6,364 nucleotides of DNA. Origin: a virus. Taxonomy: Duplodnaviria > Heunggongvirae > Uroviricota > Caudoviricetes. Shown in pieces: positions 1,824 to 2,343 of this stretch. Each line of letters opens with the position of its first letter. Within the stretch, counting starts at the first letter, position 1. The position numbers were made by a program, and so were the translations under genes. The stretch lies in the IMG/VR virus record IMGVR_UViG_2537561713_000009; one strand, given 5' to 3'. Under the pieces are notes generated by a model, which saw only the letters and a list, made by a program, of their open reading frames with translations, had not been told where the DNA came from and made no database searches.

Positions 1824-1846
1824 AAAAAAATCCCTCGAAAGAGGGA
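1824..1846 (-). terminator. Intrinsic terminator ending the repressor-antitoxin-toxin transcript
   Basis: Minus-strand RNA: UCCCUC-UUUC-GAGGGA (6-bp stem, 1831..1846) followed by U7 (plus-strand A7 at 1824..1830). Sits 18 bp after the toxin stop and just before OL/PL. Not a terminator in the plus orientation. Confidence 0.6.
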
Positions 1847-1864
1847 GTATGAAAATTGTTCAAC

Positions 1865-2152
1865 TCAGATAGAGAAGGGAAATTGTCGCCGAGAATGTGT
1901 CACGCTTACAATCTCAATGCTTGAAGCAGCTACTCTGTACAGGATTATGTAGTTAGGGTGGGTCACGATCTCTCTCAATCCAGAAACCCGTTCGCTTGGT
2001 GGATATAAGTACGGATGCTCAGATAGAGGTAATACCGATGTTTCAATGCGTATTTTTAGTCTACGTGCTGCCGGTGGGTTCTCCTTGGCGATGTAAGTTA
2101 TGATCTGGCGCAAATCATCGCGAGCAGACGGTAGCCATAAAATGGGTAACAT
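1865..2152 (-). CDS. ParE/RelE-family type II toxin (95 aa)
   Basis: Protein MLPILWLPSARDDLRQIITYIAKENPPAARRLKIRIE...REIVTHPNYIILYRVAASSIEIVSVTHSRRQ shows the conserved ParE-family pattern (W..A..DL..I..YIA..NP.AA, then YRV....I.I..V.H.RR). Its ATG shares a base with the upstream stop (ATGA overlap at 2152). Confidence 0.8.
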   Translation of the reverse strand: MLPILWLPSARDDLRQIITYIAKENPPAARRLKIRIETSVLPLSEHPYLYPPSERVSGLREIVTHPNYIILYRVAASSIEIVSVTHSRRQFPFSI

Positions 2153-2343
2153 TACTCGCTCTTGTTAGTTACAGCAATTTGAGCAATAAGATTTTCCATT
2201 TCAGCCATTACCTCGTCATGTGGAATTGCGGGGCGAGTGTCTGCAAGGCTTGACGTTACTTTAGTGCGCAACCATTCGTTGTAACTGTTTTCTTGTTCGG
2301 TAGTTTCGAATTCTGAAACTATCGGAGAAAGGGCTGTACCCAT
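2152..2343 (-). CDS. Small antitoxin partner (63 aa), resembling the toxin-binding part of ParD-type antitoxins; no obvious DNA-binding N-terminus
   Basis: ORF MGTALSPIVSEFETTEQENSYNEWLRTKVTSSLADTRPAIPHDEVMAEMENLIAQIAVTNKSE. SD GAGGAG ~6 nt upstream of the ATG at 2343, only 27 bp after the repressor stop. Acidic small protein directly upstream of, and coupled to, a ParE-like toxin. Confidence 0.7.
   Translation of the reverse strand: MGTALSPIVSEFETTEQENSYNEWLRTKVTSSLADTRPAIPHDEVMAEMENLIAQIAVTNKSE

Follow-up and report, generated by a model that had tools for sequence, protein, structure and literature searches.

The stretch of DNA analysed here (the window) comprises 6,364 nucleotides of the Caudoviricetes record IMGVR_UViG_2537561713_000009 in IMG/VR, and the system in question is a pair of small open reading frames (ORFs) on its minus strand, at positions 1865 to 2343, that directly follows a phage repressor gene and is closed by a terminator-like hairpin. 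We assign the two ORFs to an antitoxin and a toxin and, together with the repressor, to a three-gene toxin-antitoxin (TA) system of the paaR-paaA-parE type. Gene coordinates and distances, recomputed from the letters of the window, give the following layout, in the direction of transcription.

2371–2772, minus strand: paaR1-type repressor gene, 133 aa, stop TGA; the CI analogue of the prophage
2344–2370, minus strand: 27-bp spacer between repressor and antitoxin (CCACAGTACAAGAAGAGGAGTTATGCC), with GAGGAG at 2351–2356 and no terminator-like T-run
2152–2343, minus strand: paaA1 antitoxin gene, 63 aa, PaaA2 family, without a detected DNA-binding domain
1865–2152, minus strand: parE1 toxin gene, 95 aa, ParE/RelE superfamily
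1846–1831 and 1830–1824, minus strand: intrinsic-terminator-like hairpin TCCCTC-TTTC-GAGGGA and a run of seven T (T7), 18 nt past the toxin TGA

The GAGGAG Shine-Dalgarno sequence at 2351–2356 (minus strand) is followed, 7 nt further on, by the antitoxin ATG. Antitoxin and toxin genes meet in GAGTAATG, read as GAG TAA TG, where the stop codon TAA and the toxin ATG share 1 nt (TAATG). An earlier note on this DNA, made from the letters of the sequence, had described the pair with these ORF sizes, the 27-bp gap, the GAGGAG and the hairpin with T7 at 18 nt, all of which we recover; the 4-nt ATGA overlap that it placed between the two ORFs is in fact TAATG. The hairpin was also picked up by a terminator scan, although taken alone it is weak (6-bp stem; −9.9 kcal/mol in a 56-nt context, z = −1.2). 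According to the same scan the three-gene unit has this single terminator at its end and none between its genes. The third gene that sets paaR-paaA-parE systems apart is present as an HTH_3 repressor gene, 27 bp upstream of the antitoxin gene, on the same strand and across a terminator-free gap.

Judged from their strong family and PDB matches and from the toxin-antitoxin annotation in RefSeq, the small ORFs can be taken as genes rather than chance ORFs. The 95-aa protein matches Pfam ParE_toxin (PF05016; 2.9e-17, 63.5 bits, profile positions 1–89 of 89) and ParE2 in PDB entry 5CW7_B (3e-36; the crystallised O157:H7 ParE2 structures are 5CW7, 5CZE and 5CZF), and is 65–67% identical to ParE2. 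The ParE/RelE toxin signature that the earlier note had seen in it, and for which it had proposed a profile search, is borne out by the Pfam and PDB matches. Since PF05016 spans both the ParE and the RelE folds, since the NCBIfam model RelE_StbE is marginally reached (28.4 bits, cutoff 27.9) and since the target of ParE2 is still unknown, we considered whether the toxin is a RelE-like, ribosome-dependent mRNA interferase and not a ParE-like topoisomerase poison. However, the toxin matches the ParE_toxin profile far more strongly and over its full length, and the nearest characterised relative, ParE2 (~67% identical), colocalises with the nucleoid and induces SOS (PMC8630535), so that we regard an interferase as quite improbable.

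The 63-aa protein belongs to the Pfam family PaaA2 (PF21217, ‘stability determinant’; 5.6e-19, score 68.3, cutoff 27), matches the NCBIfam antitoxin equivalog NF050103 (1.6e-26, 92.1 bits against a cutoff of 50) and the PaaA2 structures 3ZBE/5CW7 in the PDB (1.4e-20), and is 62% identical to PaaA2. In Pfam and NCBIfam at E≤0.1 no ribbon-helix-helix (RHH), helix-turn-helix (HTH), AbrB or ParD model matched it, and the only models that did were PaaA2/antitoxin models. That this antitoxin shows no RHH or HTH N-terminus had been noted beforehand, and it agrees with the PaaA2-family assignment and with the published description of PaaA2 as being without any DNA-binding domain (PMC8630535).

Many E. 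coli O157:H7 chromosomes contain the window at 100% identity. In strain FRIK944 the region lies in a prophage adjoining yccA, with the gene order integrase, exonuclease, DUF1482, dicB, ... ydfB, DUF1391, toxin, antitoxin, repressor, cro-like, YdaT-like and replication genes, and this order agrees with that of O-island 44, which is CP-933M, with its genes Z1324 (exodeoxyribonuclease VIII) and Z1326 (division inhibitor). Exactly two places in O157:H7 genomes match the pair. A three-gene paaR-paaA-parE system was reportedly named and described by Hallez et al. in 2010. A homologue of the CP-933P paaR2-paaA2-parE2 system resides on CP-933M (Jurenas et al. 2021, PMC8630535), and a review of Hallez et al. 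(2010) speaks of two paralogous, non-cross-neutralising systems in O157:H7, PaaA1 failing to neutralise ParE2 and vice versa. Because of the identity to O157:H7, the prophage position on the yccA side, the two copies and this literature on a CP-933M homologue, we take the window to hold the CP-933M paralogue. With a probability of about 0.88, a figure that stands for the whole explanation and includes the addiction role discussed below, the locus is paaR1-paaA1-parE1, the three-component type II TA system of the cryptic lambdoid prophage CP-933M (Sp4) and a paralogue of the CP-933P system. The equation with the CP-933M locus of Hallez et al. (2010), from which the window shows no detectable difference, rests on host, prophage position, copy number and secondary citations.

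As CP-933M is cryptic, and as a related locus (L011) has a frameshifted antitoxin gene, the pair might be a decayed, non-functional remnant. Here, however, both ORFs are intact, the residues that are invariant across five diverged copies are all kept and the best match is at least 99% identical in 437 records; in addition, each ParE is specifically neutralised by its cognate PaaA according to secondary sources. A remnant is thus scarcely credible.

Operators and promoters flank the three genes on both sides, and the genes of the Cro and CII analogues lie beyond the right-hand set.

1769–1813, minus strand: PL-like promoter, TTGACA (1794–1799), N19, TAGATT (1769–1774), the range including its operators
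2779–2852: the OR region overall, from a repeat search and motif positions
2784–2798, 2809–2823 and 2833–2847: OR operators ACARt-N5-AyTGT, 15-bp quasi-palindromes at a spacing of 24–25 bp
2779–2784, minus strand: PRM-like −10 TAAAAT, ending 6 nt before the repressor ATG, with a poor −35
2823–2828 and 2847–2852, plus strand: PR-like TTGATT, N18, TAGGTT
2881–3153, plus strand: ydaS-type Cro analogue, 90 aa (Pfam YdaS_toxin 8e-10)
3137–3562, plus strand: ydaT-type CII analogue, 141 aa (Pfam YdaT_toxin 1.2e-9), 86% identical to CP-933P YdaT
3130–3147, plus strand: putative YdaT operator TTGATT-N6-AATCAA at the ydaS/ydaT junction, straddling the ydaT start codon

The repressor has an N-terminal HTH_3 domain (Pfam HTH_3 2.3e-12, Phage_CI_repr 7.4e-5), matches the NCBIfam DicA subfamily over its full length, under the curated cutoff (8.4e-14), and the 434 repressor in the PDB (3e-5); over its last ~45 aa, the DicA/PaaR-type domain, it can be aligned with PaaR2 and DicA. 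The repressor and cro genes diverge from a 108-bp intergenic region in which three 15-bp repeats lie over the PRM-like and PR-like hexamers. Beyond the toxin gene, the 15-mer ACAATAAAAAACTGT is repeated exactly at 1774–1788 and as a 14/15 copy at 1799–1813, and these OL-like operators both overlap the PL-like promoter. With operators at its OR-like and OL-like ends, the repressor-antitoxin-toxin unit is bracketed in the way that cI-rexA-rexB is in lambda. The pair accordingly sits between a CI-like repressor and the terminator and PL, inside the repressor unit, and its placement in a rexAB-equivalent slot, as first proposed from the sequence, stands. The hairpin and T-run are found directly upstream of the PL −35 in 7/7 compared loci, whether the pair is present or absent, the PL-like −35 aligns across the compared loci, and a functional counterpart, PL933P, has been shown in CP-933P (PMC8630535).

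From the geometry of the PRM-like promoter we infer a leaderless, activator-dependent start of the repressor mRNA; a leaderless mRNA has been demonstrated for the paralogue paaR2 (PMC8630535). At the ydaS/ydaT junction the match to the high-affinity YdaT operator is exact (0 mismatches, where 0.56 matches are expected with up to 2 mismatches allowed), and both the motif and its location are as published (PMC9986795). In CP-933P, YdaT binds at the equivalent site, next to a PRE-like promoter from which the operon is transcribed as well (PMC9986795, PMC8630535), and the YdaT site of the window probably marks a second, PRE-like entry into the repressor-TA operon that is conserved in CP-933M. The earlier note had the pair expressed from the repressor promoter, which fits its position inside the repressor unit, but that promoter would not be the sole source if the probable PRE-like route is used. 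Its suggestion that autoregulation is delegated to the repressor promoter is slightly too simple, given the same route and the partial repression of the operon promoter by the PaaA-ParE complex itself that the review of Hallez et al. (2010) reports.

The pair is present in 833 of 5426 complete E. coli genomes. Each of the eleven loci examined has it directly after a short PaaR-type repressor gene and before terminator, PL and DUF1391, and so does Escherichia phage Evi. In pair-free relatives (among them prophages with a LexA-like or a 214-aa repressor, and Qin with dicA) the repressor gene leads directly to terminator and PL, and the pair is therefore inserted within the transcription unit of the repressor. 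Between loci that carry the pair, similarity at the DNA level runs from the middle of the repressor gene (~2530) to the toxin stop (window ~1865–2530 compared with L002, L003 and L005), so that the block of repressor C-terminal domain, paaA and parE is constant, and at least four different sets of N-terminal DNA-binding domain, operators and cro are attached to it. A specific coupling of the repressor C-terminal domain to the pair was rejected, as DicA of Qin has this domain without a TA pair. Phage Evi (L008, LR597642.1, a 40-kb genome) carries a paaR2-type repressor gene, paaA and an unannotated parE ORF at 4416–5276 and is, in the phage collection searched, the only deposited phage genome encoding a ParE of this type; its copy shows that the cassette is not confined to cryptic prophages.

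Individual copies depart from this layout. In L013 (NZ_CP015229.1, 1164–2476) two tandem PaaR-type genes lie upstream of a paaA2/parE2-like pair, and these tandem repressors (73% identical to PaaR2, 66% identical to the L002 repressor) look like a recombination product within the immunity region. In L011 (NZ_CP148426.1, 1488–1680) a 1-nt insertion in the antitoxin gene, annotated as frameshifted, stands beside an intact toxin gene, and could be either a sequencing error or the sign of a decaying copy. A GC-rich stem-loop without a U-tract occupies the last repressor codons before the antitoxin Shine-Dalgarno sequence (2379–2398, minus strand, in the window) and recurs in every PaaR-type gene sampled (L002–L005, L010–L015); repressor ends of the window type have a second stem, formed between the stop-codon region and bases just ahead of the antitoxin ATG. 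We rejected a conserved regulatory hairpin at the repressor 3′ end, the stems being in different registers and formed by self-complementary Ala/Arg codons, with z from −1.1 to −3.4.

Whether the pair could instead be transcribed by itself was assessed from the DNA ahead of the antitoxin gene. No promoter of its own was found in the 27-bp gap, and when the 260 nt ahead of the antitoxin gene were scanned with relaxed sigma-70 criteria, no site emerged in the window and none that was conserved across five loci. Both the strict and the relaxed consensus scans are insensitive, missing PL, PR and PRM as well, and because the same scan overlooks the obvious PL and PR, the absence of an antitoxin promoter is weak evidence. 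The statement that there is no room for an independent promoter therefore holds for the gap, which is empty; the upstream scan is also blank, though insensitive. An autonomous two-gene TA operon beside the repressor, driven by a promoter of its own towards the 3′ end of the repressor gene and under autoregulation by PaaA-ParE, would profit from this insensitivity, from the partial repression by the PaaA-ParE complex and from the start of the mosaic block at ~2530, by which ~190 bp upstream of paaA travel with the pair. Yet the travelling upstream block encodes the repressor C-terminal domain, which is present in DicA without a TA pair, and the shortness of the gap, the lack of a sigma-70-like motif, the antitoxin without a DNA-binding domain and the reported co-transcription of the paralogue from the paaR promoter all speak for a repressor-driven unit. 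An autonomous operon is in our view very improbable.

We compared the paaR1-paaA1-parE1 unit with its CP-933P/Sp12 paralogue, paaR2-paaA2-parE2, which has the same three-gene order and orientation, the same YdaT operator motif and the conserved repressor C-terminal domain, and is likewise flanked by ydaS/ydaT on one side and by terminator, PL and the DUF1391 gene on the other. The identity comparison was based on locus L005 of another strain, where identically arranged genes code for exactly PaaR2 (MQKKE...), PaaA2 and ParE2, and in this comparison the window proteins are 34% (repressor), 62% (antitoxin), 65–67% (toxin) and 86% (YdaT) identical. The two systems differ in the N-terminal DNA-binding domain of the repressor, which is unrelated (34% identity overall), in the operators, with GTTTAGTAA half-sites in CP-933P and ACART-N5-AYTGT in the window, and in the YdaS proteins, which are only 17% identical. 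As the operators differ, CP-933M and CP-933P should be heteroimmune. They also differ in the C-terminal 18 residues of the antitoxin and the N-terminal helices of the toxin, consistent with the reported lack of cross-neutralisation, and in the antitoxin/toxin junction, a 1-nt gap in CP-933P and a 1-nt overlap in the window. In CP-933P, PaaR2 is the CI analogue, YdaS corresponds to Cro and YdaT to CII, a PL/OL set is found past the toxin gene, and the locus is addictive (Jurenas et al. 2021, PMC8630535). Operator binding and control by PaaR2 were shown by electrophoretic mobility shift assay, footprint and reporters, and Jurenas et al. themselves drew the analogy of paaR2-paaA2-parE2 with cI-rexA-rexB and PL (PMC8630535).

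Several other systems resemble the locus in part. Lambda cI-rexA-rexB and BTP1 cI-bstA also have accessory genes between repressor and PL/OL, with no separate terminator between, and in the lysogen the repressor promoter presumably drives these genes as well. RexAB and BstA, however, are abortive-infection systems and have no sequence or fold relation to PaaA-ParE, which is a type II TA for which, unlike them, only an addiction phenotype has been demonstrated; the PaaR-type repressor moreover is without the S24 peptidase domain of CI. In canonical ParD-ParE systems (RK2, Vibrio cholerae parDE2) a ParE-fold toxin is likewise wrapped and neutralised by a small, partly disordered protein, but ParD has an RHH domain and autoregulates, whereas PaaA relies on a separate prophage repressor for DNA binding. 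The Qin prophage of E. coli K-12 shares the repressor architecture of dicA (HTH and the same C-terminal domain) and the downstream ydfA-ydfB-...-DicF-dicB operon, and has no TA pair between dicA and ydfA.

In the mechanism that we propose, one transcript would cover the three genes, starting at the weak, repressor-controlled PRM-like promoter with a leaderless repressor mRNA, and a second start would be provided by a PRE-like promoter activated by YdaT, the CII analogue. For the paralogue paaR2-paaA2-parE2, co-transcription from the paaR promoter has been reported (PMC8630535). The repressor would exert CI-like control and YdaS Cro-like control, and expression may be bistable. The paaA1 gene would be translated from its own strong Shine-Dalgarno sequence, with parE1 translationally coupled to it via the TAATG overlap. 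PaaA1 would wrap and neutralise ParE1, and since PaaA is expected to be unstable (ClpXP/ClpAP), loss of the locus would free ParE, which could then act on the nucleoid, induce SOS and kill or arrest the cell. Most likely, then, the system is an addiction module that stabilises the immunity region of the prophage against loss or replacement. Prophage addiction had been offered by the earlier note as one of two roles, and it gains support from published post-segregational killing and plasmid stabilisation by the paralogue (PMC8630535).

A number of points weigh against this reading. One secondary source writes ‘paaR1-paaA1-parE3’, which makes the number of the toxin uncertain, and it is through secondary citations of Hallez et al. 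(2010) that the CP-933M pair is known to be toxic and to be neutralised. The PL-like spacer is 19 nt and the PR-like −10 is poor, both promoters failing standard consensus scans. PaaR1 being ~34% identical to PaaR2, with different operators, regulatory details need not transfer between the two prophages. Finally, the paralogue showed no ParE2 activity in single cells in either transcriptional state (PMC8630535).

The other role raised for the pair was defence against phages by abortive infection or exclusion, in which it would be a functional counterpart of lambda rexAB or BTP1 bstA. On this view, shut-off of host or prophage transcription by a superinfecting phage, or some other depletion of the labile PaaA1, would release ParE1, and the cell would be killed or arrested before the invader finishes. 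The slot between repressor and PL is indeed a hotspot of mosaic diversity with rexAB and bstA among its occupants, each presumably transcribed from the repressor promoter (PMC8585504), the most active promoter of the lysogenic state would transcribe the pair too, PaaA2 is susceptible to proteases (PMC8630535), and the presence of the pair is patchy, as seen from the genome count above and from phage Evi. Against these stand the lack of homology to RexA/RexB or BstA, the absence of any PADLOC model matching toxin or antitoxin (E≤0.01), a literature search that found no phage phenotype reported for PaaA-ParE, and the existing experiments, which point to addiction and post-segregational killing. 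We hold a defence function to be unlikely, and likewise the trigger that goes with it, an invading phage that collapses the expression of the repressor operon or the stability of the antitoxin. A weaker variant is suggested by the constant block of C-terminal domain, paaA and parE, its at least four swapped specificities and the one tandem-PaaR locus, namely that the pair may police recombination in the immunity region by killing recombinants that lose it.

The locus illustrates in textbook fashion how a type II TA system can give up a DNA-binding domain of its own and borrow the prophage repressor; addiction, recombination policing and phage defence are candidate purposes of such an arrangement. 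The pair cannot be put forward as a fresh discovery, for the system was named in 2010, its proteins have been solved structurally and its place within a lambda-like switch has been in print since 2021. Both the pair and its wiring into the prophage switch were thus correctly read but are already known, and the finding adds little that is new. The CP-933M copy, with its other repressor specificity, could nevertheless serve as a natural control for the generality of the regulatory logic of CP-933P.

Downstream of the pair, the PL-like promoter is predicted from its position to drive ydfA-ydfB-...-DicF-dicB, the small RNA of which lies in the window.

141–192, minus strand: intact DicF small RNA, downstream of the PL-like promoter (Rfam RF00039, 76.9 bits, E 3e-16)

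The dicB gene lies 46 bp past the low end of the window (L001, 10168–10356), so that the DicF/dicB-type genes expected downstream are found, DicF inside the window and dicB just outside it. The leader of ~135 nt from PL to DUF1391/ydfA (~1627–1762, minus strand, ACCCACCCCGCCCCACAGAACGCC...) is near-identical across heteroimmune prophages, with the pair present or absent (L002–L007). Immediately ahead of this leader, the promoter/operator DNA shows no relation from one locus to the next; an Rfam search with this leader gave no family match. In the place that ydfC takes in related prophages, the window has a 129-aa ORF without a Pfam family (901–1290, minus strand).

On the far side of the immunity region, an ‘ECs1072 family phage-associated protein’, without a Pfam family, is encoded antisense between ydaT and the replication genes (3769–4260, minus strand). 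The replication module itself comprises a 400-aa protein with a low-complexity linker, QEQEQEQEKEQEQ, and no Pfam match (4192–5394, plus strand; the RefSeq start is shorter), and an IstB/DnaC-like ATPase (5401–6147, plus strand; PF01695, 3.9e-19).

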